A stretch of DNA of 64,000 nt from Chthoniobacterales bacterium (GTDB taxonomy: Bacteria; Verrucomicrobiota; Verrucomicrobiia; Chthoniobacterales; UBA10450): contig JBBPZW010000122.1 in NCBI GenBank assembly GCA_038198475.1, positions 1,001 to 65,000 of the forward strand. The letters run 5' to 3'. A model generated the notes under the pieces. The model was not told where the DNA came from and did no database searches. It worked only from the letters and a program-made list of their open reading frames with translations. The translations under genes and the position numbers were made by a program. This document shows positions 16,311 through 38,442 of this stretch, piece after piece (position 1 is the first letter of the stretch; each line of letters opens with the position of its first letter).

Positions 16311-16502
16311 TCAGAGCTTCGTCTGACGCAGCCGTAGAGCGTTCCCGATAACCGAGACGGAACTCAAACTCATCGCCGCACCGGCGATGATCGGACTGAG
16401 GAGAATGCCAAACCAGGGATAGAGAATGCCGGCGGCGATCGGTATGCCTAACGAGTTGTAGATAAACGCAAAGAAGAGGTTTTGGCGAATGTTGCTCATC
16501 AT
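16311..16502 (-). pseudogene. orphan 3-prime fragment of a copper P-type ATPase gene (last 63 codons of copA)
   Basis: 59 of 63 residues in the translation [63 protein letters not shown] are identical to the C-terminus of the intact CopA at 31800-34268. No upstream ATPase sequence is present. Confidence 0.85.
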
Positions 16503-16508
16503 GGCGCG
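16311..16508. repeat. direct repeat copy A (copA 3-prime end), left boundary of the island
   Basis: Aligns colinearly with 31800-31997. The inner ~135 nt are nearly identical and the terminal ~60 nt more diverged. Similarity ends abruptly after ...CATCATGGCGCG. Confidence 0.85.
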
Positions 16509-16574
16509 GCTGGATTCTCTTGAAAGAAAAGCTCTTTCCGCTCTGCGCTGTTTTCTTTACCGTGGTGTGAACGA

Positions 16575-19500
16575 ATGAGCCGCCTCGAAGAAATTACCCC
16601 TGGAACGACAATTCGAGGCATCCTCCCCGATGCGCTCGTTGATGCTGTCAATGCACAGTGGTTCGGTTCTGAGGCTCTCGAACTGACCTACAAAGACCCG
16701 AGCGGGCGCGTCGGGAACCAGCTCCTTTATCGCCACGATGAGCCTCGATTCGAGGTCGTTGCGGCCGGTCGCCCCTGGAGCTTCGATGGAGATGGCGCGC
16801 TTTTTCGACTGGTTTCCGAGGCACAGCGGATTCGCCTCGCGCATCTGTTCGACCCCGTCCTCGCGGTCCACACATCTCTGGTCGATCCGCTGCCGCACCA
16901 GATCACCGCGGTTTACGAAGCAATGCTCCCTCGCCAGCCACTGCGGTTTCTGCTGGCTGACGATCCGGGCGCCGGCAAGACGATTATGGCCGGGCTGTTC
17001 ATCAAGGAACTCATTGCCCGCGGCGATCTCCAGCGGTGCCTCATTGTTTGCCCGGGCAGTCTCGCCGAACAATGGCAGGACGAACTCCATCGTCGTTTTC
17101 ATTTGCCCTTTGAAATTCTCACCAATGACAAGCTCGAAGCTGCTCGTACGGGCAATTGGTTCCTCGAGAACGACCTCATCATCGCACGTCTCGATAAGCT
17201 CGCCCGCGACGAAGACGTGCAGCAAAAGCTAAGTGCACCGGACTGCCGCTTCGATCTCGTTGTCTGCGACGAAGCCCACAAGCTCTCGGCGACCTTCTTT
17301 GGCGGTGAAGTGAAATACACCAAGCGCTATCGCCTGGGGCAGCTCTTGTCGGGGTTGACCCGCCATTTCCTTCTCATGACCGCTACCCCACACAATGGCA
17401 AGGATGCCGACTTCCAGCTCTTCATGGCCTTACTCGACGGTGATCGGTTTGAAGGGCGTTTCCGCGACGGTGTTCATCAAGTCGACGTCTCTGACCTGAT
17501 GCGGAGGATGGTGAAGGAACGACTTTTGAAGTTCGACGGCCGCCCCCTTTTCCCAGAGCGGATCGCTCATACCGTCCCCTACAAACTCTCAGATCTGGAG
17601 GCTCAGCTCTACAAAGAAGTCACGACCTACGTGCGCGATGAATTCAATCGCGCGGACGCGCTCCAGAACGACAAGCGCGCGGGGACCGTCGGATTTGCTC
17701 TCACCATCCTTCAACGCCGTCTCGCTTCTTCCCCTGACGCCATCTTTCACTCGTTAAGACGACGCCGCGAGCGTCTGCAGAAGCAAATGCGCGAACTGGA
17801 AATACTGCGGCGCGGAGGCGCGTCGATCGCGCTCCTGCCCGCAACGACCACGCTGGATAGCGAAGACCTGGAGGACCTCGACGAAGCCCCCGAGAATGAA
17901 GTCGAGGCCGCCGAAGAGGCGATTCTCGATCAGGCAACCGCAGCTAGCACCATTCAGGAACTCCAAGCGGAGATCGCTACCATCCAGCGTTTGGAAGGCC
18001 TCGCTGCCCAGGTATCGAAGAGCGGGGTTGATCGCAAGTGGCGCGAGCTGGCCAATCTTCTGTCCGTTATCTTTACACCGGCGGGCCTCGCGAGTCGTGT
18101 CGAGGAGTCGCCGCCGCCATATGGCTCTGGCGATATCGAACCCCCCACGCCTTCGCCCAATCAGAAGCTCGTCATCTTCACCGAGCATCGCGACACGCTG
18201 AATTATCTTCAGATGCAGATAGCGACTTTGATCGGACGTCCTTCGTCCATCGTCATGATGCACGGGGGAATGGGCCGTGAGGAACGCCGGAAGGCGCAAG
18301 AGACCTTCCTGCACGACCCTGAGTCGCTCGTCTTGTTAGCGACGGACGCAGCGGGTGAGGGCATCAATCTCCAACGCGCCCACCTCATGGTGAATTATGA
18401 TCTGCCTTGGAACCCCAACCGGATCGAGCAGCGTTTCGGTCGCATCCACCGAATCGGTCAAACCGAAGTCTGTCATCTCTACAATCTTGTCGCCATCGAG
18501 ACCCGGGAAGGAGACGTCTACCGCACTCTGTTGGAGAAGATCGAACAGGCGAGAAAGGCACTGGGCGGCGAGGTGTTTGACGTATTGGGCAAGCTCCAGT
18601 TTGAGGGTCGCTCATTACGCGACCTTCTCATTGAGGCGATTCGTTACGGTGAACTACCAGAAGTTCGCGCCCGGCTCGAGACCGCCATTGCGCACGCGGT
18701 CGACCGGGAGCACATCCAGGATCTCGTCGAGCAAAGCGCGCTAGCCAACGATACGATGGACGCCAGCCGAGTCGCGCGCGTCCGCGAAGAAATGGAGCGG
18801 GCCGACGCGAGACGCCTTCAGCCATTCTACATCGAGTCCTTTTTTCTAGAAGCATTCCGCAATCTCGGCGGCACACTCCGCCAGCGGGAGACACGCCGTT
18901 ACGAAGTCACCCACGTTCCCGCACCGGTGCGGAATCGCGACCGCATTATCGGGGTGGGTGATCCGGTTCTCGCCCGATACGAACGCATCGCCTTCGAGAA
19001 AAATTTAATCGCGCCGCCGGGCGAACCGATGGCCGCGTTCGTCTGTCCGGGGCATCCGTTGCTGGACGCTACGCTCGACCTCACGCTCGAACGGCATCGC
19101 GATCTCTTGCGTCGCGGCGCCGTGCTGGTCGACGAATCCGATCCTGGCACCAAACCGCGCATCCTCTTCTATCTGGAACACGCAATTCAGGATGCGAGCC
19201 TTCTCCGCTCGGGCGAACGACGGACCGTTTCAAAACAGATGCTCTATGTCGAGATCGACGCGGAAGGGCACGCCAAGCATCTCCACTACGCTCCGTATCT
19301 CGATTATCGGCCACTCGCGCCGGACGAATCATCACCCGAAGTCCTACTCCAACGCCCCGAGTGCTCTTGGATCACACGGGAGATCGAGCAGAAAGCTTTC
19401 ACCCACGCGATTGCTCACGTCGTGCCGGGACATCTCGAAGAAGTAAAGAGCCGCCGGCTGCAATGGATTGAAAAAACGCGCGCCGCCGTCAAAGAACGGC

Positions 19501-20153
19501 TCACCAAAGAGATCACTTATTGGGATCACCGCGCCGCGCAGTTGCGCGACCAGGAACAAGCCGGCAAACCCAATGCGCGAGTCAACTCGCAGGAGGCGCG
19601 GCGGCGGGCCGACGACCTGCAAGCCCGACTGGAGAAGCGACTCTCGGATCTAGACAAGGAAGCGCAGATTTCTGCGCTTCCTCCGGTCGTGCTGGGTGGT
19701 TTCATGGTCGTGCCGGCAGGCCTTCTCAACGCGATCGCCGGAACGCCTCCGCCGAAGGCGACTTCTCCCGTCGATACCCAAGCCTCTGCAGCACGGGCGC
19801 GGGCGATCGTCATGGAGATTGAGCGCGGACTGGGGTTCCAGCCGGTAGACCGCGAATTCGAAAAGCTCGGCTACGACATCGAGAGCCACGATCCTGCAAC
19901 CGGCCGACTCCGTTTTATCGAGGTGAAGGGTCGCGTCACCAAAGCCGATACCATCACCGTGACCAAAAACGAGATTATGTACAGCTTGAACAAGCCCGAT
20001 GATTTCGTTCTCGCGATGGTGGAATTTCTCGATGGAGAGAATCACCAGGTACATTACCTACGGCAGCCATTTCGCCGCGAACCCGATTTCGGTGTGACGA
20101 GCGTGAACTACGATTTCGAAGAGCTGATGGCGAGAGCAGCGCCGCCGAAGTAG
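16575..20153 (+). CDS. SNF2-family helicase with C-terminal DUF3883 (restriction-endonuclease-like) domain
   Basis: Helicase motifs LADDPGAGKT (I), VCDEAHKL (II), MTATPHNG (III), and C-lobe ATDAAGEGINLQ...QRFGRIHRIGQT. The C-terminal GYDIES...RFIEVKGR...ITVTKNE...DFVLAMVEF is typical of DUF3883. Confidence 0.85.
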   Translation: MSRLEEITPGTTIRGILPDALVDAVNAQWFGSEALELTYKDPSGRVGNQLLYRHDEPRFEVVAAGRPWSFDGDGALFRLVSEAQRIRLAHLFDPVLAVHTSLVDPLPHQITAVYEAMLPRQPLRFLLADDPGAGKTIMAGLFIKELIARGDLQRCLIVCPGSLAEQWQDELHRRFHLPFEILTNDKLEAARTGNWFLENDLIIARLDKLARDEDVQQKLSAPDCRFDLVVCDEAHKLSATFFGGEVKYTKRYRLGQLLSGLTRHFLLMTATPHNGKDADFQLFMALLDGDRFEGRFRDGVHQVDVSDLMRRMVKERLLKFDGRPLFPERIAHTVPYKLSDLEAQLYKEVTTYVRDEFNRADALQNDKRAGTVGFALTILQRRLASSPDAIFHSLRRRRERLQKQMRELEILRRGGASIALLPATTTLDSEDLEDLDEAPENEVEAAEEAILDQATAASTIQELQAEIATIQRLEGLAAQVSKSGVDRKWRELANLLSVIFTPAGLASRVEESPPPYGSGDIEPPTPSPNQKLVIFTEHRDTLNYLQMQIATLIGRPSSIVMMHGGMGREERRKAQETFLHDPESLVLLATDAAGEGINLQRAHLMVNYDLPWNPNRIEQRFGRIHRIGQTEVCHLYNLVAIETREGDVYRTLLEKIEQARKALGGEVFDVLGKLQFEGRSLRDLLIEAIRYGELPEVRARLETAIAHAVDREHIQDLVEQSALANDTMDASRVARVREEMERADARRLQPFYIESFFLEAFRNLGGTLRQRETRRYEVTHVPAPVRNRDRIIGVGDPVLARYERIAFEKNLIAPPGEPMAAFVCPGHPLLDATLDLTLERHRDLLRRGAVLVDESDPGTKPRILFYLEHAIQDASLLRSGERRTVSKQMLYVEIDAEGHAKHLHYAPYLDYRPLAPDESSPEVLLQRPECSWITREIEQKAFTHAIAHVVPGHLEEVKSRRLQWIEKTRAAVKERLTKEITYWDHRAAQLRDQEQAGKPNARVNSQEARRRADDLQARLEKRLSDLDKEAQISALPPVVLGGFMVVPAGLLNAIAGTPPPKATSPVDTQASAARARAIVMEIERGLGFQPVDREFEKLGYDIESHDPATGRLRFIEVKGRVTKADTITVTKNEIMYSLNKPDDFVLAMVEFLDGENHQVHYLRQPFRREPDFGVTSVNYDFEELMARAAPPK

Positions 20154-20165
20154 AGTTCAGAAAGA

Positions 20166-21875
20166 ATGAGCCGGGCCCATATTCTCAACACGCGGACGAT
20201 CAACTTTCTTGAGCTCATCGGGAATGGGAAGGTTTTTCGCGTTCCGCCCTATCAACGCGATTATTCCTGGTCAGAGGAGCAATGGGAGGATCTCTGGACG
20301 GACATCCTGGAGATGCGGCAACAACCCGAGAGTCGACACTACATGGGCGCGCTTGTCGCCCAAGCGGAGAGCGATCGTGAATTTGTCGTCATCGACGGCC
20401 AACAGCGGTTGGCCACACTCAGCATCTTTGCCCTCGCAGTCATTCAGAAACTTGAGCACATGGCTAACCAAGGGATCGAGCCAGAGGCGAATAAAACTCG
20501 TGCGGGGGAACTGCGTGGCCGGTTCATTGGCGAACGCGATCCAGCCTCTCTGATTGAATCCAGTCGCCTTCTCTTGAATGAGACCGACAACGCCTTTTAT
20601 CAGGACTACCTCATACAGCTCAACGAGCCCCGTAACCCGAGAGGACTTCCAAAATCTAATCGCCTCCTTTGGCAGTGTTTTCGTTATTTCGCGGCGAAGC
20701 TCGACAAGCTAGACGATGTGCAGACAGATGGCGAAAGCCTGGCTCGCATTCTTTCGGAGACAACGGCCCGGCAACTCCTTTTCATCCTCATCACAGTCGA
20801 CGACGAACTGAATGCATACACGGTTTTCGAGACTTTGAACGCTCGCGGTCTGGAACTGACCACGACTGACCTGCTCAAGAATTATCTGTTTTCAAAAATT
20901 AAAGTCTCCGCGGACTTGGCGGCATTACAAAGGCGTTGGCGCTCGCTTGTCGCGACGGTTGCACAGGAGCGTTTCCCGGAATTTCTCCGGTACCACCTCC
21001 TATGCGAGCAGCCGAAGGTGCGAAGCCAGCGCCTCTTTAAGATTGTCCGCGAACGGGTCAAGACTCCCGAAGACGTCTTCAGCCTGCTCAAGGCCTTGGA
21101 ATCCCGCTCCGAATTATTCGCTGCGCTTTCCGACCGCAATCACGGCTACTGGACTGATCGGCCTGACGCGAAGCCGTTCATTCGCGACTTAAACCTATTT
21201 CGAGTTCGGCAAATGACGCCGCTTTTTTTCGCCGCCTGGGAACGATTCGATCCCGACGACTTCGTTCGCACGCTAAAGCTAGTAAGTATTGTTTCCTTTC
21301 GCTTCACGGTAGTGAGCGCGCTTAATACCAATGCCCTCGAACCGGTCTCTCATGAGGCAGCGAAGGCTGTTCTCGATGGTGCAGCCAAAGGGCCGCAGGG
21401 CGTCTTTGAAATACTTCGACAAGTCTATGTCGATGATCAGAAATTCCGCAATGACTTCGCTCAGCTCGTCGTTGACACCCACGGGTACCGTCGCCGTCTG
21501 GCGCGCTACATTCTTTGCAAGCTAGAGGAAGACGCTTCCGGACGTGCCTGTGATCCTGAAACCGATCCGGGAACCATTGAGCACGTCCTGCCGGAAAATC
21601 CTTCAGAGGAATGGACTGATACATTTCCCCGGCAACTCTGGGACGCCGCTCTTTACCGCATGGGCAACCTAACGCTTCTAGAGCCACGCCTGAACCGTGA
21701 CGTCGGCAATGCAATTTATCCGGTGAAGCGCAAAGCCTATGTCGAAAGCGGATATGATATTTCGAAGGCAATCCCCGCGCTTGCGCCCGAAGACTGGACC
21801 TTCGAACATCTCGAAAGTCGTCAGCTAAACCTCGCGAAGCGCGCAGTTCACGTGTGGAGGTCGGATTTTGCTTGA
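20166..21875 (+). CDS. DUF262/DUF1524 protein (GmrSD-like type IV restriction enzyme family)
   Basis: N-terminal [12 protein letters not shown] and [10 protein letters not shown] (DUF262, ParB-like). C-terminal IEHVLPENP...[15 protein letters not shown] (His-Me finger, DUF1524). Confidence 0.85.
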
Positions 21876-22302
21876 TCTCGTTGGCCGTATTCCGTCTGGC
21901 AAAGATCCGTCGGGAGCTTGGACTACATTCATGGAGGACTTTCGCTCCCTCATCGAATCCACCGTACTAGCCAACCGCTTGCAGGCAAACTGGCACGACC
22001 CAATTCGTGATCCGGATGGCAAGTATGTCGTCGACTATCGGGTCAACAGTATGGCGCAACCCGTCTTGATCTTCGCCTTACCGAGCGACGATAAGGTTCG
22101 CGACGCGACGATTACCTTGTTGCAGTTGGAGAAATGGGAGCGTCCCTTCCACTCGCTTGCCGTGTTTGAAGATCAGGAAGAGGTGAATCGTAAGGTGCTC
22201 GCCCGATTCACAGATGTTTGTGAGAAACAGTTTTCCAGTCTCGGGGCAAACAAGGAGAGCATTGTGCGGTATCTCGATGAGACGATGGACCAAGGCGATT
22301 AG
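21868..22302 (+). CDS. hypothetical protein (island orphan 1)
   Basis: 144-aa ORF in operon position. The start is unclear: TTG at 21868 overlaps the upstream stop, or the internal ATG giving MEDFRS. I recognise no motif. Confidence 0.5.
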
Positions 22303-22325
22303 GTTTCATGATGTAGCGATCTGGG

Positions 22326-22967
22326 ATGCAATATCAGAAGGGAATCGCAGAGGAGTATGAGACGAAGCGCCAAATTGCGCTGCTGGCGGGTGCATCGTAC
22401 GTCGTCCGCACAATCAATGACGACGAATTGCGCCGGGTAGAGCGCCAGGACTTTGCGAAGTTGCAATGGCGACCCGAGTCACGGCTTTTCGTTATACGAG
22501 GCGCTGCTGGAAAGCTTGTCGCTCGCTTTGGCGTCCTCGACAAATCGGAGTGCTTCATGCGACTGAGGGAACCTGTGAGAAAACCCGTTTTCGCCTCACT
22601 GGCCTTGCTTCACGCGGAGGCATACGAACCGGCGGAATTTGTGTTGAAGCACCTCCAAAATCCGATAGTCAGCATCTATAAGCCCGCGAAGAGGCTTAGC
22701 TACGTGGGGCTTTCGATCGGCGACCGTGAAAAGCGCTACTCAGCAGTCTTGTCGCTCAAGGGTGATTGCTTGCTGGCTATTGACTTCGAACCAACTGTTG
22801 GTGGAGGCGGCGGAAGAGAAGCAACGACCGGTGGTCCAGTTAATCACAGCAGAGCGGAAGTAGAGCGCACCGCGCTGCGGGAGGCACTGACTGGAGCCTT
22901 CTTTTTGCCGGACCACTCAAACAGCTGTAACACCCAGGTCGCGTTCGAGCGCCGAACAGCGAACTAG
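22326..22967 (+). CDS. hypothetical protein (island orphan 2)
   Basis: 213-aa ORF, same strand, 23 nt after the previous gene. Contains a Gly-rich linker (GGGGG). I recognise no family. Confidence 0.55.
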   Translation: MQYQKGIAEEYETKRQIALLAGASYVVRTINDDELRRVERQDFAKLQWRPESRLFVIRGAAGKLVARFGVLDKSECFMRLREPVRKPVFASLALLHAEAYEPAEFVLKHLQNPIVSIYKPAKRLSYVGLSIGDREKRYSAVLSLKGDCLLAIDFEPTVGGGGGREATTGGPVNHSRAEVERTALREALTGAFFLPDHSNSCNTQVAFERRTAN

Positions 22968-22993
22968 GAATGCCTCCGACCGTTTTGTAGCAG

Positions 22994-25885
22994 ATGACTA
23001 CGCCCATCAAACTCCGCAAGAAACTCATCGAAGTCGCCCTGCCGTTGGAGGCGATCAACAGGGCGGCGGCGCGGGAGAAATCGATTCGGCACGGGCATCC
23101 GAGTACGTTGCATCTTTGGTGGGCGCGGCGGCCGCTAGCGGCGGCGCGGGCGGTGATCTTCTCTCAGATGGTGGATGACCCGTCGGCCAGTCCTGATTTG
23201 TTTCCGACGGAGAAGGCGCAGGAGAAGGAGCGCAAGCGGCTCTTCAAAATCATTGAGAAGCTGGTCCTCTGGGAGAACACGACCAACGAAGAGGTGTTGC
23301 AAGAGGCGCGCGACGAAATCTGGGAGAGCTGGCGGCGCACTTGTGCCGAAAATGCCGGCCATCCGCGGGCGAAAGAACTCTTCGATCGGCACAAGCTACC
23401 CGCGTTTCATGATCCCTTTGCCGGCGGCGGCGCGCTGCCGCTGGAGGCGCAGCGGCTCGGACTGGAGGCATATGCCAGCGACCTCAACCCCGTGGCCGTG
23501 CTCATCAACAAGGCCATGATCGAGATTCCGCCGAAGTTCGCGGGCCGGCCGCCGGTGAATCCTGACGCACGGAAAGGGAAGCTGGACATCAAGACATGGC
23601 GCGGCGCGCAGGGGCTGGCCGAGGACGTGCGCTACTATGGCCAGTGGATGCGCGACGAGGCGGAGAAGCGCATCGGGCATCTCTACCCGAAGATCGAGAT
23701 CACCGCCGCGATGGCGCAGGAGCGGCCCGACCTGAAACCGCTCGTCGGCCAAAAGCTCACCGTCATCGCGTGGCTCTGGGCGCGGACGGTGAAAAGCCCG
23801 AACCCGGCGTTTCGCCAGGTGGACGTGCCGCTCGCCTCCACCTTCATGCTCTCGACCAAGCCGGGCAAGGAAGCCTGGATCCAGCCGGTAATCGTGGACG
23901 GTGGCTACCGCTTCACGGTGAAGGTGGGCAAACCGAAGGACGCCGAAGCAGCGAAGGCCGGCACCAAGCTCGCACGCGGCGCGAACTTCGGGTGCGTGAT
24001 GTCCGGCACGCCGATGACGGGCGACTACATCAAGGCCGAGGGCAAGGCCGGGCGAATGGGCGCACGGCTCATGGCCATCGTGGCGGAGGGGCAACGCGGG
24101 CGTGTTTATCTCGCGCCCACGCCGGAGCACGAGACCACTGCGTTGAAAGGCAAACCAGAGTGGAGACCGGAGCAATCGCTCCCAGACGACCCGCGCAATT
24201 TTTGGACCGTGCAATATGGCCTGACGACCTATGGCGATCTTTTCACAACCCGGCAACTTGTAGCACTGACGACATACTGCGATCTCGTCAGCGAAGCGAT
24301 CGAGGTCATCCGTCACGACGCGCTCGCGGCTGGCCTCGCCACCGACCTCAAGCCCCTTCGAGAAGACGGAATTGGGGCGAAGGCATATGCTGAGGCGGTT
24401 GGAGTCTATCTCGCGTTCGCAGGCGATAAAGCGACCGACTATTGGTCGAGCGTTTGTTCATGGCACTCAAGCAAGGAGCTTATCCGTAATACATTTGGAC
24501 GGCAGGCAATTCCGATGACTTGGGATTACGCTGAAACGAATCCATTTTCACAATCTGCTGGCAACGTCTCCAGTGGTATAGAATGGGCGCAGAAGGCTCT
24601 GAGCGCCTTTCCGACAACAAGAGTGGAAGGATTCGCGACGCAAAGTGACGCGCAGAATCAGACTGTGAGCATCGACAAGGTCGTCTCGACCGACCCGCCC
24701 TATTACGACAATATCACCTACGCTGACCTCTCCGATTTCTTCTATGTTTGGCTCCGTCGTGCGCTGCGATCCACCTTCCCGGAAGTTTTCGCCACTCTCG
24801 TGGTTCCGAAGGCTGAGGAGTTGGTCGCGACGCCATACCGACACGGCACCAAAGAAAAGGCAGAAGCATTTTTTCTTGAGGGCATGACGAGCGCGATGCA
24901 CCGGCTTGCCGAGCAAGCGCATCCGGCATTTCCCGTCACGATCTACTACGCCTTCAAACAATCGGAGAGCGAGAGCGAGTCTGGCACCGCAAGCACGGGC
25001 TGGGAGACATTTCTCAACGCGGTGATTCGTGCTGGCTTTGGCACCAGCGGCACATGGCCGATGCGCACGGAACTTGGCAATCGTATGATCGGCAGGGACA
25101 CCAACGCCCTTGCCTCCAGCATCGTCCTTGTCTGCCGTCCGCGAGCGGCGGATGCGCCCACGGCGACGCGGCGGGAGTTCGTGGCCACGCTCCAGCGGGA
25201 GCTGCCGGAGGCGTTGCGGCATTTGCAGGCGGGCAACATCGCCCCGGTGGACCTCGCGCAGGCCGCCATCGGCCCCGGCATGGCCGTCTTCACCCGCTAC
25301 GCCCGGGTGCTCGACGCGCAGGACAAGCCGCTCGGCGTGCGCGACGCGTTGAAGGCGATCAACCAAGTCCTCGACACCGCGCTCGCCGAACAGGAAGGCG
25401 ATTTTGATTCCGACAGTCGCTGGGCCATCACCTGGTTCGAAGAGAACGGGTTTAACGAAGGCGAATACGGTCGCGCCGAGCAACTATCGAAGAGCAAGAA
25501 CACCAGCGTCACCGGCATCGAGGCCGCGGGCATCGCCAAGGCAAAGGCCGGCAAAGTGAGCCTGCTTAAGCCTAACGAGTTGCCGGCCGACTGGGATCCT
25601 GAGACAGACTCGCGCCTCACGAACTGGGAGATGGTTCATCATCTTATTCGCGCTCTGGAATCCGACGGCGAATCGGCCGCGGCCCAGATCGCGGCCAAGC
25701 TGGGCGGAAAAGCCGAAACGGCGCGCGAGCTTTGCTATCGTCTCTACACTCTCTGCGAACGGAAGAAGCGCGCTGCGGAAGCGCTTTCCTACAACGGTCT
25801 GGTGCAAAGCTGGCCGGAGATCATCCGCCTGGCGAAAGAGCAGGAGCAAGCCATCCCGAGGCAGAGCAGTTTGGCAGGATTATGA
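22994..25885 (+). CDS. DUF1156-type DNA methyltransferase (N6-adenine/N4-cytosine class, DPPY motif)
   Basis: N-terminal [37 protein letters not shown] (DUF1156 hallmark), SAM motif [15 protein letters not shown], catalytic [23 protein letters not shown]. Confidence 0.9.
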
Positions 25886-26721
25886 CCACTAATTCCCACC
25901 AGCCTCCATTTTACCGGCGGCCGCCTGTCATCGAGCGAGTGGTCGGTGTGTATGCTGAGATGAGCGACGAAGTCTTTGAAGGGCGCTTCGACGAGTGGCG
26001 CGCCATAGTGGAGAAGGAGTATCCGGTTTATGAGCCACTGACTGAATGGCTAATTCAAGTGAAGGACACAGATCATCGTGAGGAAGGAGCAATTCCTCTC
26101 TTCGACACGATGCAGCCAGAACTGCGAATCACGCCTCGCTTCTCGCGAAAGTCGTCAAAAGAGAATTTCGACTGGAGCATACGGTGCCCGCGGGGCCAGT
26201 TGACCATGAACATGCACTCCCGTCCCACTCAAGGAGCGGAGCGGCGATATGATACTCTCCGGGCCGAGTTCTCGCGCTGGCTGCCAAGATGGTTGGCGCA
26301 TTTCTCCGTGGAGTCGATGACGCGGGTCACGGCGCATTATGTAAACCTGGTAAACCGGCATACGGTGCCCGCGTTCGTGACCAAAGAGGGACGACTCCTG
26401 CTCGATCAAGTCGTCGCTGTTTTCTCGCAGATTCCCGGGGAACACGAGTGTCTTATCCCGCCTTATGACTGCAAGGCGACGCTGCTCCTGCAGGGACAGG
26501 ATGGTGCAACTTTGCGGCTGAATGTCAACGATTGGTCCAGCAAGGAATTGGGAGCAGCAGTGCGAGTGGATTTCATCGTGGACGCTCCAGCGCAAAACTT
26601 GGAGGCTTCGGGGGAGAAGATTCTGCAATTGCTCGATTGGTGTCACGAGCGTATCATCGAGCGCTTCGAAGTCGTCTTTACCGAGAAAGCCAAAAAGACA
26701 TTTGAGCCTGTAACCGAATGA
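25882..26721 (+). CDS. TIGR04255-like conserved hypothetical protein
   Basis: The ATG overlaps the methyltransferase stop (ATGA at 25882-25885). At 279 aa, its size and N-terminus ([16 protein letters not shown]) resemble what I recall of the TIGR04255 family. This needs an HMM check. Confidence 0.55.
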
Positions 26722-27341
26722 TTTTCGCTCCCGCGTTGCCACCACCTCCGGACGCAGAAGCCGCGGAATCCTACTCACCCCAGCTTCCCTCACGGCTTAT
26801 CGCCCGGATCGAGCCGACCTGGCTCAGAAGGCAGCGGTACGCCTATAAACGGTCGGTTCTGCCCATCGAAGGGGGTCGAGTTCTTTTACGCCTGACGGAG
26901 CCGCCGATGATCGAGGTCGATCCTGCATCGAAGGAATGTGAGGTCATCGGATGGGGAATCCGCATGTCGCGAGATTTCATCCATGAACTGCCAAAGAAGA
27001 TGGCACGACGTTTTCTCGATCTGTTCAGCAAGGCGGACTCCAGCCGGTTGAATGAGGAGGAGCGCCAATGCTGGATGGGGATTCTCGATCAGGTGGATTT
27101 CCCGGCGTTCTGCATCGACCGGGCAGCCCCGCATTACCTGGAGGGGAGGTTGGCTCGGCTTGATCCAGTCTGTCTAGTTGATTGGCACGATGGAGAGCGC
27201 CAGCAGATCGGGCGGGAAGCGGCGCGCTCGCTCGGATGTTTACGCCCGGGAGACGAGTTCGGCGCCTATGTGAAACTGGGGAAACAGAATTCGGTTCTTT
27301 CCATTGAGCGGATCACGCTCCTGGCGCCGGTGGAGGAATGA
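26718..27341 (+). CDS. hypothetical protein (island orphan 3)
   Basis: 207 aa with ATGA overlaps to both neighbours (26718-26721 and 27338-27341). I recognise no motif. Confidence 0.6.
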   Translation: MIFAPALPPPPDAEAAESYSPQLPSRLIARIEPTWLRRQRYAYKRSVLPIEGGRVLLRLTEPPMIEVDPASKECEVIGWGIRMSRDFIHELPKKMARRFLDLFSKADSSRLNEEERQCWMGILDQVDFPAFCIDRAAPHYLEGRLARLDPVCLVDWHDGERQQIGREAARSLGCLRPGDEFGAYVKLGKQNSVLSIERITLLAPVEE

Positions 27342-28393
27342 CCGGGGCTGAGCTCACCATTGATCTATGGGACGTAGGACAAGGTGATTGCACCGTCATT
27401 CGTCTCCCCTCTGGCGGATTGTTGATTATCGACGTAGGGCCGAAAGGAAGTCCGGTGGTGGACTGGCTGAACGAGCGAGGGCGAAGCCCCGCGCAGATTG
27501 AAGCGATTGTTCTAACCCACAATGACGCTGATCATGCAGGGTCGCTGCCCGCGATCATTGCAGAACATAAGCGGCGTATCGGAGCAATCTGGATGTTGCT
27601 CGACCGTGAGATTCACGATCCGCGCTTTCAGAAAATCTTCCGCGCTGCTCTCGAAGGAGAGGATCAGGGTTTCTACAAAATTCGCCGGGTAGAAGATGGG
27701 CAGGAGCTTTGGGCTGACCCGTCCGACCGGACCAGGATTCACGTTATTCATCCTCGCTTCTCTCAGAATATGCTCGCTGCGAACCCCAATGAATCGTCAG
27801 GCGTGATCGTCCTGGATTCGGAGGGACGGCGGCTCTTTGCGTGGCCCGGGGATTTGGAAATCCGAAAGGCAGCGTCCGTCTTGGCAGCGAATAAACCGTG
27901 GATGCTCTTTGGGCCGCACCACGGCGGCCCCTCTGATTATCCGACGAAAGCGCTTCGGAAACGGGCTCCAAGGGAGACATTGAGGAATCGGATGGCTGAA
28001 ATTCGCAATGCTGCTGCGTCACTAAACCCTGCACGGGCGTTTATCTCCGTGGGCACCAGAAACAAGCACAACCATCCTCGACCTGGTTATTTGAGGTTGC
28101 TCGCAGCGACCGGATCCCGAGTCGTTTGTTCTGAACTGACCACGTGTTGCGAGCGAGAAGCCATTCGTCATCACCGGCACGTCTTGCAGGGATCGGGCCT
28201 GCTTGGGCTTCGCCCGGCACGCTCCGGTGTTTCGTGTCGCGGCTCGATGCGGCTTTATCTAAAAGATGGCGCGTTGTTCCCGGATGAATTCGATCAAGAG
28301 CATCTACGGCGGGTTGCCACCTTACTGCGGCCCCAGTGTCTTCGCGTCGGGGATTGGCGACGCGGCAAGCAGTTACCGATTTTCCGAGATTGA
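27338..28393 (+). CDS. MBL-fold metallo-hydrolase (ComEC/Rec2 C-terminal-like)
   Basis: LWDVGQGDCTVIRLPSGGLLIIDVG and THNDADHAGSLP (HxHxDH-type metal motif variant), with a later GPHHG, typical of the ComEC-type beta-lactamase fold. Confidence 0.75.
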   Translation: MTGAELTIDLWDVGQGDCTVIRLPSGGLLIIDVGPKGSPVVDWLNERGRSPAQIEAIVLTHNDADHAGSLPAIIAEHKRRIGAIWMLLDREIHDPRFQKIFRAALEGEDQGFYKIRRVEDGQELWADPSDRTRIHVIHPRFSQNMLAANPNESSGVIVLDSEGRRLFAWPGDLEIRKAASVLAANKPWMLFGPHHGGPSDYPTKALRKRAPRETLRNRMAEIRNAAASLNPARAFISVGTRNKHNHPRPGYLRLLAATGSRVVCSELTTCCEREAIRHHRHVLQGSGLLGLRPARSGVSCRGSMRLYLKDGALFPDEFDQEHLRRVATLLRPQCLRVGDWRRGKQLPIFRD

Positions 28394-28420
28394 AAGGGAG
28401 TTGGCGACACCGGAGCGAGT

Positions 28421-31400
28421 ATGGCGATCACGAACACAGAACGCGTCGGCAAAGCGATGGAACTCTTGCGCGAAGGCTTGCGGCCCTTCGTCCAGCGCGA
28501 GCTAAAGGCGGAATACGGGGAGCAGACTTGGTTTGAAGAAACAAAGAAGATGCTCACGCAGCAGCAGCTCAACTTTGTGAAGAAGAAGGGCGAGCCGGAG
28601 TGGGATGTGGCGATGCTGCTCGGTGTCCTCTGGAACCAGTGGAATGAAGTCTTCCGGAAAACGCTCGGACACGCCGAACGCAGTCTGGTGAGTGAGCTGC
28701 GAGACTCGCGCAACAAATGGGCGCATCAGCAGCCCTTCAGCACGGATGACGCCTATCGCGTCTTCGATAGTATCGGTCGCCTGCTGGCCGCCGTGTCCGC
28801 GCCCCAAACGGCCGAACTCGACAAAATGAAGATGGAGCTCCTGCGGCTCCGCTTTGACGAACAGGCACGAGGAGAGAAACGGAAGGCGGTTGGTTCATTG
28901 ATCGAGACCGGGAGTGCGTTGCCACCGTGGCGGGAAGTCATCACGCCGCACAAGGATGTGGCGAGTGGTCGCTATCAACAGGCGGAGTTTGCCGCTGATC
29001 TCTGGCAGGTGCACCTGGGCGAAGGAACCGACGAATACAAAAAGCCCACGGAGTTCTTCCGACGCACCTACCTGACGGAGAGCTTGCGTCGATTGCTTGT
29101 CGGCGCGGTGCAACGTCTGACCTCAAACGGCGGTGATCCGGTCGTGCAACTTCAGACGAACTTCGGAGGCGGCAAGACGCACTCGATGCTGGCGCTCTAT
29201 CATCTCTTCTCCGGTGCAACGCCCGGCGAGTTGGCGGGGGTCGACGCAGTCATGGCCGAAGCCAACGTGAACAGTCTGCCGAAAGCGAAGAGAGTCGTGC
29301 TCGTGGGTACAAAGATTTCGCCGAGCACCCCAAGCACAAAGCCGGACGGAACGGTGGTGCGGACGCTGTGGGGCGAACTGGCCTGGCAGCTAGGTGGCAA
29401 GAAGGCTTTCAAGAAAATCGCCGCCGATGACGAGAAAGCGACCAGCCCCGGCGATCTGATCCGAGAGCTGCTGAACGAATACGGGCCGAGCCTGATCCTG
29501 ATTGATGAGTGGGTCGCCTACGCGCGGCAGTTGCACGATCAAAGCGACCTGCCGGCCGGCGGTTTCGAGACGCAATTCTCCTTTGCCCAAGCGCTCACGG
29601 AATCGGCCAAGCTGGCGAAGAATTGTCTGCTGGTGATTTCGTTACCGGCATCTGATACCGGCACGTCACCGCACGCGCAGGCAGACGATACGGAAGTAGG
29701 TGGCGTCCGCGGGCGAGAAGCCCTGGATCGACTGCGCAATGTGGTCGGCAGACTGGAATCATCGTGGCGACCGGCGACGGCGGAGGAAGGCTTCGAGATT
29801 GTCCGCCGGCGGCTTTTTGAGCCGCTCACGGGTGACCAATTTAAGAATCGCGATGTGGTGGCGCGGGCTTTTGCCGACTTGTATCGGGCGCAACACGCGG
29901 AATTCCCGCCCGAGTGTCGCGACAGCGAGTACGAGACGCGGCTTAAGGCTGCTTATCCGATTCACCCGGAGATCTTCGACCGACTCTACACCGACTGGTC
30001 GACGCTGCTCAAGTTCCAGCGGACGCGCGGCGTGTTGCGCCTGATGGCCTCGGTCATTCATTCGCTTTGGGAGAAAGGTGACCGCAATCCATTGATTCTG
30101 CCTTCGATGATTCCAATTGATGATCCGCGAGTCCAATTCGAGCTGACGCGGTACCTTTCCGATAACTGGGTTCCAGTGATCGAGAAGGACGTGGACGGAC
30201 CAAACTCTCTTCCGCTGCGGATTGATGGCGAGGTTGCTAACCTCGGCAAGCTGCACGCGACACGAAGGGTGGCGCGGACGATCTATCTAGGCTCCGCTCC
30301 GACTTCCGCTGCGGCGCATCGAGGAATTGAAGATCGTCGAGTGAAACTCGGGTGTGTCATGCCAGGCGAAGCGCCCGCGCACTTCGCAGACGCGCTGCGT
30401 CGGCTGACAGCAACGGCTACTTATCTTTATCAGGACGGGCCCCGTCTTTGGTATTCGACCCAGCCGACGGTCACAAAACTGGCTGAGGATCGCGCCGACC
30501 AGCTTAAGCGCGATACCGACAAGGTCGCGATGGAACTCGATCGTCGGCTTCGGAAGGATTTGGAAAAGAGAGGGAACTTCGCCCGCGTTCACCCAATGCC
30601 GCGAAACAGCGGGGATGTTCCTGACGATCTCGACGCCCGACTCGTCGTTCTCGGCATCGACCACGTCTATACAAAGGAAGCCGGGAGTCCTGCGGAAACG
30701 GCTGCGAAAACAATCCTCGAAACGAGAGGCAATACGCCTCGGATTTACAGAAACACGCTGGTGTTTCTCGCTCCAGATAAGGTTCGTCTGCAAGACTTGG
30801 ACGAAGCCACTCGCAAGTATCTCGCTTGGGAGTCGATCCTGGCGGAAAAGGAAAGTCTCGATCTTTCCCCATTCCAAGTGCGGAACGCCGAAACGCAAAA
30901 GACTGCGGCCGATAGCGCGGTGACGGCGAGATTGCCCGAGACTTATCAGTGGCTTCTCGTTCCGATCCAAAACGGTCCGCAAGGAGCGATTGAATGGCAG
31001 GCATCCCGCCTTTCTGGAAGCGACAGTCTGGCCGTCCGCGCCAGCAGGAAGATCGTTTCCGAGGAACTCTTGATTCCTAGCTTTGGTGCGAACCGCCTGC
31101 GCATGGAACTCGATCGCATCCCTCTGTGGCGGGGTGACCATGTGCCGATCAGGCAGTTAGTCGATGACTTTGCTCGCTATCTCTATCTGCCACGTCTGAC
31201 CGATTCCTCCGTCCTCGTGAATGCGATTCGCGATGGGCTTACTTTGCTAACGTGGGTGGAGGACTCCTTCGCCTATGCCGAAAGCTATGATGAAAGCGCT
31301 GGTCGATATCGTGGGTTACGCGGAGGTCAGGCCGCGGGAATTTACGACGCGAACGACCCAGGATTGTTGGTCAAGCCCGCCGTCGCCAAGCCCGTTCTGG

Positions 31401-31747
31401 ACGCGGTTTCGAAAGAGAAAAGTAAAGACGAAGATGAGGCGGGTAAAAGCACAGACGGAGATGACGGTGACGAAGGAGACGATGGCCGCGGGAAAGGGGA
31501 AGTGGCCGCCCTACCTCGTCGTTACCACGGAACGGTCGGACTAGACCCCAACCGAGTGGGGCGCGACGCGAGCAAGATCGCGGAGGAAGTCATCTCGCAC
31601 CTAACTAGTCTGTTGGGAGCAGAGGTGAAGGTGACATTGGAAATCGAGGCGACAATTCCCGGAGGCGCGAATGAACAAGTCGTTAGGGCGGTGACCGAAA
31701 ACAGCAAGACTCTGAAGTTTGAGCAACACGGCTTCGAAGTAGAATAA
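28421..31747 (+). CDS. DUF499-type ATPase with N-terminal Swt1-like HEPN domain
   Basis: HEPN motif LRDSRNKWAHQ (RxxRNxxAH) near residue 95. P-loop-like NFGGGKTHSMLALYHL and Walker-B-like LILIDEWVAY. Large C-terminal region with an acidic tail. Size 1108 aa. Confidence 0.8.
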   Translation: MAITNTERVGKAMELLREGLRPFVQRELKAEYGEQTWFEETKKMLTQQQLNFVKKKGEPEWDVAMLLGVLWNQWNEVFRKTLGHAERSLVSELRDSRNKWAHQQPFSTDDAYRVFDSIGRLLAAVSAPQTAELDKMKMELLRLRFDEQARGEKRKAVGSLIETGSALPPWREVITPHKDVASGRYQQAEFAADLWQVHLGEGTDEYKKPTEFFRRTYLTESLRRLLVGAVQRLTSNGGDPVVQLQTNFGGGKTHSMLALYHLFSGATPGELAGVDAVMAEANVNSLPKAKRVVLVGTKISPSTPSTKPDGTVVRTLWGELAWQLGGKKAFKKIAADDEKATSPGDLIRELLNEYGPSLILIDEWVAYARQLHDQSDLPAGGFETQFSFAQALTESAKLAKNCLLVISLPASDTGTSPHAQADDTEVGGVRGREALDRLRNVVGRLESSWRPATAEEGFEIVRRRLFEPLTGDQFKNRDVVARAFADLYRAQHAEFPPECRDSEYETRLKAAYPIHPEIFDRLYTDWSTLLKFQRTRGVLRLMASVIHSLWEKGDRNPLILPSMIPIDDPRVQFELTRYLSDNWVPVIEKDVDGPNSLPLRIDGEVANLGKLHATRRVARTIYLGSAPTSAAAHRGIEDRRVKLGCVMPGEAPAHFADALRRLTATATYLYQDGPRLWYSTQPTVTKLAEDRADQLKRDTDKVAMELDRRLRKDLEKRGNFARVHPMPRNSGDVPDDLDARLVVLGIDHVYTKEAGSPAETAAKTILETRGNTPRIYRNTLVFLAPDKVRLQDLDEATRKYLAWESILAEKESLDLSPFQVRNAETQKTAADSAVTARLPETYQWLLVPIQNGPQGAIEWQASRLSGSDSLAVRASRKIVSEELLIPSFGANRLRMELDRIPLWRGDHVPIRQLVDDFARYLYLPRLTDSSVLVNAIRDGLTLLTWVEDSFAYAESYDESAGRYRGLRGGQAAGIYDANDPGLLVKPAVAKPVLDAVSKEKSKDEDEAGKSTDGDDGDEGDDGRGKGEVAALPRRYHGTVGLDPNRVGRDASKIAEEVISHLTSLLGAEVKVTLEIEATIPGGANEQVVRAVTENSKTLKFEQHGFEVE

Positions 31748-31799: not shown

Positions 31800-31997
31800 T
31801 TACAGCTGCACTTTGCGCAGGCGGAGCGCGTTTGCGATGACCGAAACGGAGCTCAGGCTCATCGCCGCACCGGCGATGATCGGGCTGAGGAGAATGCCAA
31901 ACCAGGGATAGAGAATGCCGGCGGCAATCGGGATGCCTAATGAATTGTAGATGAAGGCAAAGAAGAGGTTCTGGCGAATGTTGCTCATCATGGCGCG
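31800..31997. repeat. direct repeat copy B (functional 3-prime end of copA), right boundary of the island
   Basis: Homologous to 16311-16508 with many synonymous differences. It carries GCCTAATG where copy A has the host-enriched GCCTAACG. Confidence 0.85.
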
Positions 31998-34268
31998 ACT
32001 GAGACGGACGGCCTTCTCGATGCCGCGGAGATCGCCTTTCAGGAGCGTGATACCGGCGCTTTCCATGGCCACGTCGGTGCCGGTGCCCATGGCGATACCG
32101 ACATCGGCCGCGGCGAGCGCGGGCGCGTCGTTGATTCCGTCACCGGCCATGGCGACGACTTCGTTGCGTTCGCGTAACGCGCGCACGCGATCGTTCTTGT
32201 GCTGCGGTTCGACGCCGGCTTCGATTTCGTCGATGCCGAGCCGGCCGGCGACGGCATTTGCGGTCCGCTCGTTGTCGCCGGTCAGCATAATGATTTTCAT
32301 GCCGAGTTGATGCAGCTGCTCGATCGCGGCGGGCGTCGATTCTTTGATCGGGTCGGCTACGGCAATGATGCCCATCGCCCGACCGTCCCAGGCGACGAAG
32401 ATGACGCCATCGCCCTCCGATTGCAGGTCGGCGGCGCGTTTCGCGAAGTTGTGCATCTCGTGCACGCCCTGGTCGTGGAGGAATTTCGGTTTGCCCACGA
32501 CAACATGTCGTTCGCCGACGCGACCTGTCACTCCGCCCCCAGTCGTTGATTGGAAATCAGCGACCGCGGGAATCTCGATGCCGCGATCGGTGGCGCCTTT
32601 CACCAGTGCCTGGGCTAAGGGATGCTCGCTGTTTTTCTCGACGGCAGCTGCGAGCGAGAGCAGTTCGTTCTCCGTTGTTGAATCCGCTGCGACGATACCT
32701 GTCACCGCAGGGCGACCTTCAGTCAGCGTGCCCGTCTTATCGACGACCAGTGTGCGCACTTTCTCCATCAATTCGATGGCCTCAGCTTTTTTGATCAAGA
32801 CTCCGGCTTGCGCGCCGCGACCGACTCCAACCATGACTGACATGGGCGTCGCCAAACCGAGGGCACATGGGCAGGCAATGATCAACACCGCCACGGCATT
32901 CACGATGGCATAGGCAAAGCGCGGCTCGGGTCCGAACACTGCCCAGATGACGAAGGTAAGGATCGCGCTCGCGATCACCGCGGGAACAAACCAGCCGGCT
33001 ACTTTGTCGGCGAGACCTTGAATCGGCGCGCGGCTGCGCTGCGCTTGCGCGACCATCTCGACGATTTGCGAGAGAACGGTTTCGTTTCCGACGCGCTCCG
33101 CTTCAATCACGATGCTGCCGGTTTGGTTCACCGTGCCGCCGGTGACGCGGTCGCCGGGCGCTTTCTCGACCGGCATCGACTCGCCCGTGATCATCGATTC
33201 ATCGATGTTGGTCCGGCCGTCGATGACGTGGCCGTCCACCGGAACCTTCTCACCGGGCCGGACGCGGAGGTTGTCGCCTTGCTGAATTTCGTCGAGCGGC
33301 ACCTCCTGCTCGCTGCCGTCGCGCACGCGGTGCGCGATTTTCGGTGCGAGATCGAGCAGCGCGCGAATAGCGCTGCCGGTTCGGCTGCGCGCACGCAGTT
33401 CAAGCATCTGGCCGAAGAGGACCAGAACGATAATGATGGCGGCGGACTCGAAGTAGACTCCGATTTTTCCGTGCTCCGCAAACGAGGGCGGAAAGCTCTG
33501 CGGGAAAAGCATCACGACTGCGCTATAGAAGTAGGCCGCGCCGACGCCGATCGCGATGAGGGTAAACATGTTGAGCGAGCGGTGGACAATGGACTGCCAA
33601 CCGCGCTGAAAAAACGGCCAGCCCGCCCAGAGCACCACGGGTGTGGCGAAGGCGAATTGAATCCAGCGTGACGGATCGCTCATCACCCAGCCCCCGTGGG
33701 CCAGGGCGGGAACGAGATGCGCCATGGCGAGCAGGAACACAGGCAGCGCGAGTGCGCCGCCGATCCAGAACCGGCGTGTCATGTCGCGTAGCTCGGTGTT
33801 GTCCTCTTCGTCACCGCCGACTACGCCTTTGGGCTCGAGTGTCATGCCACAGATGGGGCAATTGCCGGGATGATCCTGCTCGATCTGCGGATGCATCGGG
33901 CAGGTGTAAATAGTCTTCGCCGGCCCGCGGAACAACGGATTGCGTTCCAGCGCCATCCCGCATTTCGGGCAACTGCCCGGGGTATCGCTTTCGACGCCTT
34001 CGCACATTGGGCAGAAGTATTTCTTCGCCGGCTTGCGGGCCGTCGCGACTTTCGCCGTCTCGTTAGGCGAATGATCGCCGTCGTGACAGCAGGAGTGTTC
34101 GTGCGTTGGTTCGTCGGTGCTCTTGCCCTGAGCGATGAATGCGTCCCGGCAATGTTCGGAACAGAAATAGAATTTCCCGTCTTCTCGCTCCACGACCGCG
34201 GCGGCATTCCTGGGATCAACCGTCATGCCGCAAATCGGGTCGCGAACCGTGGAATCAATCTCCTTCAT
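31800..34268 (-). CDS. copA: copper-translocating P1B-type ATPase
   Basis: CPC transmembrane motif ([11 protein letters not shown]), DKTGTLT phosphorylation site, [10 protein letters not shown] hinge. N-terminal YHS/TRASH-like [10 protein letters not shown]...YFCSEHC plus two YxCPMHP...CPxCGM (HMBD) modules. Confidence 0.95.
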
Positions 34269-34555
34269 CGCAGAAACCTCCCCAGTGCGGTTTGCAGCTC
34301 AGCCAGGAGCTCTTTCGGTTTCATTGGTTTCGCCTTGGCGTGCTCCTTGCCGGAACCGTGGCCGATGACGCACGACTCCAAATGGTTCGTCAGCAGCTCG
34401 ACGCCGAGAGCGTCGAGCGCTGAACGAACCGCTGAGATTTGGTTCAGGATATCGACGCAGTAGCGGTCTTCTTCGATCATCCGCTGCACGCCTGCCACCT
34501 GCCCCGCGATCCGCTTGATGCGGACCTTCAGCTTGCTTCCGTTAACTTCCGCCAT
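34265..34555 (-). CDS. csoR: CsoR/RcnR-family copper-sensing repressor
   Basis: 96 aa with [36 protein letters not shown]...HLESCV (the C-H-C ligand pattern of CsoR). The stop overlaps the copA start. Confidence 0.9.
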
Positions 34556-34565
34556 GACGCAGCAT

Positions 34566-34582
34566 ATACCCTATAGGGGTAT
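34566..34582. promoter_or_regulatory. CsoR operator-like palindrome
   Basis: ATACCC-TATA-GGGGTAT lies 11 nt upstream of the csoR ATG. It resembles the known CsoR box pattern TACCC-N-GGGTA. Confidence 0.6.
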
Positions 34583-34608
34583 GTGTCAATCAGGGCGGAA
34601 ATCACGAT

Positions 34609-34749
34609 CTATTCCTTTACCATCTTCGTGTCGCAGCAACAGGTCGGCGCGTCATCGCCAGCTTCTTCTGCCGGAGCGCCTTTGGTTACTTTGACCTCGC
34701 AGCCGCACTCGGCCTCGGGACATTTATAAGTTGCACCTTCTTCTAACAT
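34609..34749 (-). CDS. 46-aa Cys-rich, desulforedoxin-like small metal-binding protein (not in the ORF track)
   Basis: My translation is MLEEGATYKCPEAECGCEVKVTKGAPAEEAGDDAPTCCCDTKMVKE. A strong SD (AAGGAGGTG) lies 7 nt upstream of the ATG. The pattern YKC..CG.EVKV...CC..D.MVK parallels desulforedoxin and the Dfx N-terminal domain. It sits between the DUF4396 gene and csoR. Confidence 0.55.
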   Translation of the reverse strand: MLEEGATYKCPEAECGCEVKVTKGAPAEEAGDDAPTCCCDTKMVKE

Positions 34750-38419: not shown

Positions 38420-38442
38420 TATGGAACGGGAAATTTCCTGAC

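Follow-up and report, generated by a model that had tools for sequence, protein, structure and literature searches.

A 64,000-nucleotide stretch of contig JBBPZW010000122.1 (positions 1,001 to 65,000 of the forward strand, assembly GCA_038198475.1), derived from a Chthoniobacterales bacterium of the phylum Verrucomicrobiota, carries at positions 16575 to 31747 a run of nine genes that we analyzed as a putative defence operon. Hereafter the whole stretch is called the window, and positions are those of the window unless another sequence is named. A preliminary description had proposed nine tightly packed genes on the same strand, and all nine open reading frames (ORFs) were recovered on the plus strand at the coordinates given there (Table 1), each with the GC pattern of a coding region (GC1 higher than GC2, with raised GC3). 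Neighbouring genes are separated by gaps of 12, 23, 26 and 27 nt or overlap by 4 nt (ATGA, at three junctions). Genes 2 and 3 overlap by 8 nt if gene 3 starts at a TTG, and are 55 nt apart if it starts at the ATG at 21931, which is the choice of the gene caller. The start of gene 6 is the ATG at 25882, overlapping the stop codon of gene 5, and not an upstream TTG; the junctions of genes 6 and 7 and of genes 7 and 8 are the other two overlaps. A scan from 15.5 to 32.5 kb found no sigma-70 promoter and terminators only at chance level; an Rfam scan gave nothing within the locus, and a tRNA scan gave no tRNA gene.

Three of the nine genes (genes 1, 5 and 9) were identified as hmaA, hmaB and hmaC. 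The product of gene 1 matched the PADLOC HmaA profile over its full length (1678 bits, residues 1-1190), that of gene 5 matched HmaB (1592 bits, residues 1-958), and that of gene 9 matched HmaC (1154 bits, residues 166-1106 only). In Pfam, gene 1 has SNF2-rel_dom, Helicase_C and NOV_C (DUF3883), with DEAH at residue 232 and the nuclease motif FIEVKG (ExK); gene 5 has DUF1156 (PF06634, 107 bits) and a D12-class MethyltransfD12 signal, with motif I (FAGGG) at residue 142 and motif IV (DPPY) at residue 567; gene 9 has HEPN_Swt1 (PF18731) at 11-126 and DUF499 (PF04465), with the Rx4H motif of HEPN (RNKWAH) at residue 97. The catalytic motifs are intact in all enzymes of the operon. Because the profile matches and the Pfam domains agree, the core can be assigned to Hma, in the variant with a HEPN-fused ATPase. 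Thus the methyltransferase-containing defence operon that the preliminary description had built on the DUF3883 helicase, the DUF1156 methyltransferase and the DUF499 ATPase is borne out. So are the individual domains it had named (SNF2 and DUF3883, DUF262 and DUF1524, DUF1156, Lactamase_B, HEPN_Swt1 and DUF499), and with them the additional nuclease-type effectors, a GmrSD His-Me finger and a metallo-beta-lactamase (MBL) fold, and the HEPN domain.

That a HEPN-DUF499 ATPase occurs together with an N6-methylase and a DUF3883 helicase was first noted in 2013 (Anantharaman et al. 2013), and Hma was later defined as a helicase-methylase-ATPase operon found in 26 phyla (Payne et al. 2021). In 2026 the group was renamed Type-1 DUF499-centred BREX-related (BR) systems; the HEPN-DUF499 fusion is the majority form, present in 1370 of 2446 Type-1 BR taxa, and a helicase-restriction endonuclease fusion was counted in 79% (PMC12839542). 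The hmaA product is the primary effector of the Hma or Type-1 BR system, and HmaA alone guards Escherichia coli against T4 by means of its nickase activity or domain (PMC11232893). HmaB is the presumed self-marking component. The preliminary description had suggested that the triad overlaps the core of MADS, the methylation-associated defence system, and this part was abandoned in favour of Hma. PADLOC-DB 2.0.0 contains mad models, including mad2, mad3 and mad8, and none of the window proteins matched a mad profile among the families listed, which for genes 1 and 2 were the best 25. Furthermore, MAD6, MAD7 and MAD8 are mandatory in the definition of MADS given by its authors, and no kinase or HsdS-like domain was found by Pfam, PADLOC or NCBIfam in any of the nine proteins.

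Table 1. Genes and boundaries of the defence island in the window
Feature	Position	Strand	Description
hmaA (gene 1)	16575-20153	+	Predicted Swi2/Snf2 helicase with C-terminal PD-(D/E)xK (NOV_C/DUF3883) nuclease
Gene 2	20166-21875	+	Predicted HEC-06-type GmrSD-like enzyme, DUF262 and DUF1524 His-Me
Gene 3	21868/21931-22302	+	3' remnant of a ~259-aa DUF1828-family (PDC-M24B-like) gene
Gene 4	22326-22967	+	Rare ~210-aa family, no assignable fold
hmaB (gene 5)	22994-25885	+	Predicted DUF1156 N6-adenine-type DNA methyltransferase
Gene 6	25882-26721	+	TIGR04255-like, 279 aa
Gene 7	26718-27341	+	207 aa, two predicted OB-fold-like beta-barrels
Gene 8	27338-28393	+	Predicted soluble ComEC-type MBL-fold nuclease, 351 aa
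hmaC (gene 9)	28421-31747	+	Predicted DUF499 STAND/ORC-like AAA+ ATPase with N-terminal Swt1-like HEPN
Left island boundary	16327-16512	-	Orphan copy of the copA 3' end (~186 bp)
Right island boundary	31816-32001	-	Functional copA 3' end (copA P-type ATPase gene, 31800-34268, minus strand)

The three core genes are co-directional and stand in the order hmaA, hmaB, hmaC, with three embedded genes in each of the two slots between them. Such a split, which had been regarded as unusual, is the ordinary state of these operons: embedded genes, for which the term Hma-embedded candidate (HEC) was coined, occur in 62.7% of 1,485 Hma systems (Payne et al.), and insertions were counted in about 66.5% of Hma loci in another survey (Liu et al., PMC11232893). 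The PADLOC model of Hma tolerates up to three embedded genes per slot, and the slots are enriched for defence genes in published surveys (Payne et al.). We consider it quite probable that the locus is a horizontally acquired Hma operon whose two slots have served as landing pads for independent defence modules, and not a machine of nine subunits. By their similarities, the embedded genes represent one validated module (HEC-06, gene 2), one dead remnant (gene 3) and two candidates (gene 4 and the trio of genes 6, 7 and 8). The gene identities and synteny, the truncation of gene 3, the exchange of cassettes, the repeats at the borders and the conservation of motifs come from the present analysis, and the activities of HEC-06 and HmaA and the BR model are taken from the literature.

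The whole operon is enclosed by a direct repeat of ~186 bp with 90% identity between the copies. The left copy lies within the 318-nt region upstream of hmaA, and its in-frame translation is the C-terminus of CopA, ending in RLRQTKL*; the right copy belongs to the real end of copA, which adjoins hmaC. The operon is a ~15.3-kb insertion into copA between direct repeats, with the end of copA regenerated. Since a copy of the copA 3' end stands on each side of the island, the operon arrived as a single insertion. No integrase gene is present inside the island. In a megablast search against plasmids, only ~1 kb of hmaB was matched (75% identity), in plasmids of Thermus and Meiothermus. The same genes with identical proteins were found on one Logan contig (L001), and the exact composition of nine genes was found outside the window only on this identical contig.

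In the first slot, gene 2 matched the PADLOC HEC-06 profile over essentially its whole length (695 bits, residues 1-567, profile of 569 positions), together with GmrSD_N and GmrSD_C of Pfam. The motifs DGQQR (residue 77) and EHVLP (residue 472) are intact. Gene 2 is thus a predicted stand-alone GmrSD-like restriction enzyme of the HEC-06 type. HEC-06 protects alone, and mutation of the DGQQR or the E-H motif abolishes the defence (Payne et al. 2024, preprint).

Gene 3 had been listed as an orphan. However, we found at least 94 homologues in metagenome contigs, in which the segment represented by gene 3 makes up the last ~120 residues of a protein of ~259 aa. Gene 3 aligns solely to residues 135-256 of the full-length homologues. 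These have an N-terminal DUF1828 domain (PF08861), match PDC-M24B, and are usually preceded by a conserved gene of ~160 aa; the DUF1828 half and the ~160-aa partner gene have left no trace anywhere in the window. Because only residues ~135-256 are kept and the rest is gone from the window, gene 3 is the stump of an earlier tenant that was displaced. The intact pair of genes is present between hmaA and hmaB in locus L068, with the same placement and spacing in L051. It is also present between brxC and pglXI in a BREX type 3 locus, L035, which encodes BrxF, BrxC, PglXI and a SNF2 BrxHII-like helicase; three further loci (L042, L045 and L079) look like L035, the annotation having been checked on L035 only. 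Therefore, the same tenant uses the slots of both BREX type 3 and Hma.

Gene 4 had also been called an orphan. A word-indexed search returned only gene 4 itself; the full HMMER search found 21 other clusters at 20-49% identity. There was no match in Pfam, PADLOC or PHROG and no significant or meaningful match in the PDB. All of the contexts recovered for the homologues (L096, L097, L098 and L100-L102) are helicase or methylase defence loci or neighbourhoods of DUF1828 genes. In L098, hmaA is followed by genes of 1381 and 551 aa, the gene 4 homologue, hmaB and HEPN-hmaC. The order is SNF2 helicase, gene 4 homologue and a 1601-aa Eco57I-like protein in L097; SNF2 helicase, a 200-aa gene, DUF1016, gene 4 homologue and DUF1016 in L100-L102; and a DUF1828 gene followed by the gene 4 homologue in L096. 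Across the loci retrieved, a profile of gene 4 showed adjacency to the DUF1828 gene only in L096 and in the window, and gene 4 was rejected as a fixed partner of that gene. The near absence of invariant residues in the family suggests that the role of gene 4 is non-enzymatic.

Comparison with related Hma operons showed how the slots change. Locus L016 (MWWA01002041.1, 1-4634) corresponds to window positions 20522-24137. The two share 97.5% DNA identity from a point in HEC-06 up to window position 22256, which lies in gene 3; at 22256 the homology breaks abruptly, and gene 4 is replaced with an unrelated ORF of 346 aa with a PD-(D/E)xK-like C-terminus; the homology resumes within hmaB at 82-87% DNA identity. 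We take this as direct evidence that diverged Hma operons have exchanged cassettes. In L068, whose HmaA is 75% identical to that of the window, the intact DUF1828 pair occupies the first slot as mentioned above, and HEC-03B and HEC-03A (an ABC-type ATPase and its partner) occupy the slot between hmaB and hmaC (9682-11558 of that locus). In L098, other genes and a gene 4 homologue occupy the first slot, and the second slot is empty. Both L068 and L098 have a HEPN-fused HmaC and lack the trio. Conservation of the exact nine-gene composition, a check proposed in the preliminary description, did not extend beyond the identical contig, and the closest Hma relatives have other tenants or none in the slots.

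The second slot contains genes 6, 7 and 8. In a database of about 5.8 billion sequences, the family of gene 6 comprises 47 clusters and that of gene 7 comprises 60. Thus, of the four genes for which the preliminary description had found no function, genes 4, 6 and 7 are members of genuine, if small, families, and gene 3 is a fragment of a common DUF1828-family gene. In the PADLOC, PHROG and Pfam libraries, genes 6 and 7 had no match and gene 8 matched only generic MBL-type entries. Gene 6 had been described as TIGR04255-like. Gene 6 itself does not match the TIGR04255 hidden Markov model at E<10, but weak matches (best E 2e-8) were obtained with 21 of 36 family members; therefore, the term is fair at the level of the family, which is probably a distant sister of TIGR04255 and not a member of it. 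A literature search for TIGR04255 returned nothing, and no relatives of gene 6 were found in a scan of IMG/VR. The AlphaFold2 (AF2) model of gene 6, with a predicted local distance difference test (pLDDT) score of 91.4, has a two-lobed alpha/beta fold, and the protein could be a sensor or regulator. The AF2 model of gene 7 (pLDDT 84.9) consists of two beta-barrels, for which Foldseek gave matches to IF1, the oligonucleotide-binding (OB) domain of the proteasome Rpt subunit, and the single-stranded DNA-binding protein (SSB), with probability up to 1.0 and E of 4.5e-3 or higher, at the level of domains only; the sequence search of the PDB gave no significant match. From this model, gene 7 may bind nucleic acid.

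Gene 8 has the Lactamase_B domain of Pfam, and its best NCBIfam match was ComEC_Rec2 (E 2e-8, positions 442-610 of the 663-position TIGR00361). The nearest solved structure is the MBL domain of ComEC (30bt_A, E 3.4e-6, aligned at 534-743 of 801 aa); both alignments cover the MBL region of ComEC only. The MBL metal ligands are retained: in 12 trio homologues, H61, D65, H66, D172, H194, H195 and H246 are invariant, as are C264, C271, C300 and C334 of the Cys-rich C-terminal region. ComEC, a DNA-uptake channel, has an OB fold at its N-terminus and an MBL nuclease at its C-terminus, and its MBL domain acts in DNA uptake during transformation. Since ComEC joins these two elements, genes 7 and 8 may form a soluble ComEC-like pair that is regulated by gene 6.

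The order 6-7-8 recurs in about 15 distinct loci with 45-70% protein identity, and in every one of them the gene 7 homologue stands between those of genes 6 and 8. No hma gene was found in the flanks examined at the other loci (up to 10 kb per side, and much less on short contigs). The genes are predicted to be translationally coupled throughout, and we regard the trio as a putative autonomous cassette. All of the identified carriers are metagenome-assembled genomes (MAGs) of Verrucomicrobiota (Chthoniobacterales, Spartobacteria, Chthoniobacter, Prosthecobacter, Brevifollis and Akkermansiaceae). A scan with two peptide patterns found the trio in 9 of 185,579 species-representative genomes. The closest relative of the trio (69% identity), in L106, is located downstream of a phage-type integrase gene and eight small genes that are tightly packed or overlapping, which suggests a prophage-like or satellite-like carrier.

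Two further observations concern these loci. In L106 (172-7639; ENA scaffold WILH17-1...scaffold_1135), one of the small genes weakly matches a small terminase subunit, and an N6/N4 methylase gene is nearby. In an Akkermansiaceae MAG (L014, JACKQE010000001.1), a stand-alone 147-aa HEPN_Swt1 gene (12434-12877) directly follows a stand-alone trio; its product and the N-terminal HEPN domain of the window HmaC share 43% identity, and the gene may be a stump of hmaC carried with the cassette or a fourth gene of the cassette. Donation of the HEPN domain of gene 9 by the trio cassette was also considered and was rejected as the general explanation: the HEPN-DUF499 fusion is the majority form of Hma, and it is present in the trio-free loci L068 and L098.

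A possible course of action of the locus can be outlined as follows. HmaB would methylate host DNA at N6 at its own recognition sites, HmaC would scan DNA and recognise invaders, and HmaA would translocate and nick or cleave unmodified DNA with its C-terminal PD-(D/E)xK domain, so that restriction would be gated by methylation. The HEPN RNase of HmaC might be the abortive effector of last resort. HEC-06 would act independently, presumably on modified phage DNA. The trio would be a soluble ComEC-like effector that degrades DNA, in which the OB protein of gene 7 may hold single-stranded or end-containing DNA, gene 8 may digest it, and gene 6 may gate the reaction. The outcome would be three or four layers of defence that are transcribed together but independent of one another in mechanism. 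That the trio is an undescribed autonomous ComEC-like DNA shredder directed against mobile elements, and that gene 4 is a new accessory family travelling with the methyltransferases of SNF2-based modification systems, are proposals that we make tentatively and to which we give somewhat less than an even chance.

Several observations weigh against this interpretation. A methylation phenotype of HmaB was not seen, and overexpression of HmaB left the sensitivity to T4 unchanged (PMC11232893). The model of gene 6 had no significant match in the PDB, its sole notable structural match being one unnamed viral protein, which is uninformative, and the domain-level OB-fold matches of gene 7 have weak E-values. 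For a defence role of the trio, the points available are its embedding, its patchy distribution and the one integrase-linked copy; in the larger loci it has different neighbours each time, most of them metabolic or housekeeping genes and not defence islands. Furthermore, the ATGA overlap between hmaB and gene 6, and the fact that gene 4 or its homologue immediately precedes the methylase gene in the window and in two other loci (L097 and L098), are also compatible with functional integration into the core. They could be explained if all nine genes formed one integrated system, a new Hma- or MADS-like subtype with obligate GmrSD, MBL and small-protein subunits. The single operon with spacings of 0-27 nt and three overlaps of start and stop codons would fit such a system, as would the insertion of the island as one block, and nucleases nested in BREX and BR loci have been argued to be coupled 'backup effectors' (PMC12839542). 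However, the exact composition occurs only in the identical contig, the closest Hma relatives have different genes or none in the same slots, and gene 3 is truncated. HEC-06 defends alone, the trio occurs at about 15 distinct loci with no hma gene in the flanks examined, and no mad-family match was obtained among the families listed. An integrated system is thus distinctly improbable, and the one nine-gene system with an accessory set of the preliminary description is better described as an Hma core with independent modules or remnants between its genes.

The metabolic neighbours of the trio elsewhere, its confinement to Verrucomicrobiota among taxonomically identified copies, the absence of PADLOC or PHROG matches for genes 6 and 7, and the established role of the ComEC MBL domain in transformation point to another possibility, that the trio is a DNA-processing or housekeeping cassette specific to this phylum (for example, in DNA uptake or repair) which came into the operon by chance. 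We consider this unlikely, although less so than the integrated system. The trio is found in very few of the genomes scanned and in a different context in each, and is thus sporadic and mobile; one copy stands beside an integrase gene and a run of small genes, with a methylase gene nearby; in the window it is inserted precisely, without its own promoter, in a slot that is enriched for defence genes in published surveys; and its catalytic residues are strictly conserved. It could also be asked whether the locus is DISARM or Type-2 BR (the 'RM-like' set of Gao with a PLD helicase) and not Hma, since gene 1 matches DrmD profiles at 350-399 bits, and genes 5 and 9 match DUF1156_antiphage and DUF499_antiphage of NCBIfam (E 1e-29 to 1e-50). 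There is hardly any chance of this. The DrmD score of 350 compares with a curated cut-off of 610, the NCBIfam scores are 102, 173 and 150 against equivalog cut-offs of 1000, 1200 and 1100, respectively, and all of these are far below the Hma scores of the same proteins. In addition, the Pfam scan found no DrmA, DrmB (DUF1998), DrmC or PLD domain, and the tail of the helicase is PD-(D/E)xK and not HKD.

The island is embedded in a region of other functions. The upstream flank contains AraC/DJ-1 regulators, a TonB-dependent receptor, a GNAT acetyltransferase and DUF6428; two of the regulators, at 5702-6748 and 12719-13882, are paralogues of the DJ-1/PfpI-AraC type that stand on either side of the TonB-dependent receptor and a TPR protein. 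Downstream, a copper and metal resistance cluster on the minus strand (31800-50271) adjoins the island. It encodes the CopA P-type ATPase, DUF4396, DUF305, two multicopper oxidases and a Cus-like resistance-nodulation-division (RND) efflux set with an AcrB-family pump, an HlyD_D23 adaptor and two outer-membrane factors. A fluoride riboswitch (Rfam RF01734, 43.3 bits, exceeding the gathering score) is located at 62073-62148 on the plus strand.

Since the Hma core and the embedding of genes in it are already published, the general view of these systems is not altered by the locus taken as a whole. It is, however, a clean worked example of slot turnover in Hma, with a validated tenant, the stump of an evicted tenant, a swap resolved at the nucleotide level in L016 and exact borders in copA. 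The trio and gene 4 can be nominated as defence candidates by guilt-by-embedding. If this is true, the trio would add an MBL/OB-fold nuclease architecture to the catalogue of defence systems, from a phylum that has barely been sampled by defence screens. Any tractable Hma locus remains useful for the question whether methylation by HmaB gates HmaA.

In comparison with known systems, the locus agrees with Hma or Type-1 BR in having all three core proteins in the order A-B-C, the PD-(D/E)xK tail of the helicase, the DUF1156 N6 methyltransferase, the HEPN-DUF499 fusion, and embedded genes in both slots; it differs in the slot tenants only, of which the MBL trio and gene 4 have no model in PADLOC-DB 2.0.0. 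Thus the composition, which could not previously be mapped to a characterised system, is known as far as the core and HEC-06 are concerned, and it is the trio that matched no described system in the libraries searched. With MADS (mad1-8 of Pseudomonas aeruginosa SMC4386) the locus shares a large defence operon with a methyltransferase, but MADS is built on a kinase, a type I-like specificity subunit with a methylase, and MAD6-8, and PADLOC did not call Hma in MADS. Gene 2 resembles HEC-06 in its full-length profile match, its DGQQR and E-H His-Me motifs and its embedding in Hma, with the difference that in the window it runs up to or into the remnant of a displaced tenant. In the case of PDC-M24, a candidate defence pair with a DUF1828 protein, the similarity is that of gene 3 to the C-terminal half of the PDC-M24B-like DUF1828-family protein; the DUF1828 domain and the ~160-aa partner are lacking.

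For the trio, the nearest comparison is ComEC. The closest relative of gene 8 is the MBL domain of ComEC, with which it shares an H-x-D-x-D-H-type motif, and the predicted OB folds of gene 7 together with the MBL fold of gene 8 echo the two soluble modules of ComEC, although gene 7 has no sequence similarity to the ComEC OB domain (DUF4131). The terms lactamase, MBL and ComEC are absent from the supplementary tables of the Hma-embedding paper, as far as these were available to us. Unlike ComEC, the trio has no membrane 'competence' domain, the putative OB and MBL modules are on separate proteins, and a TIGR04255-like partner and a Cys-rich tail are added.

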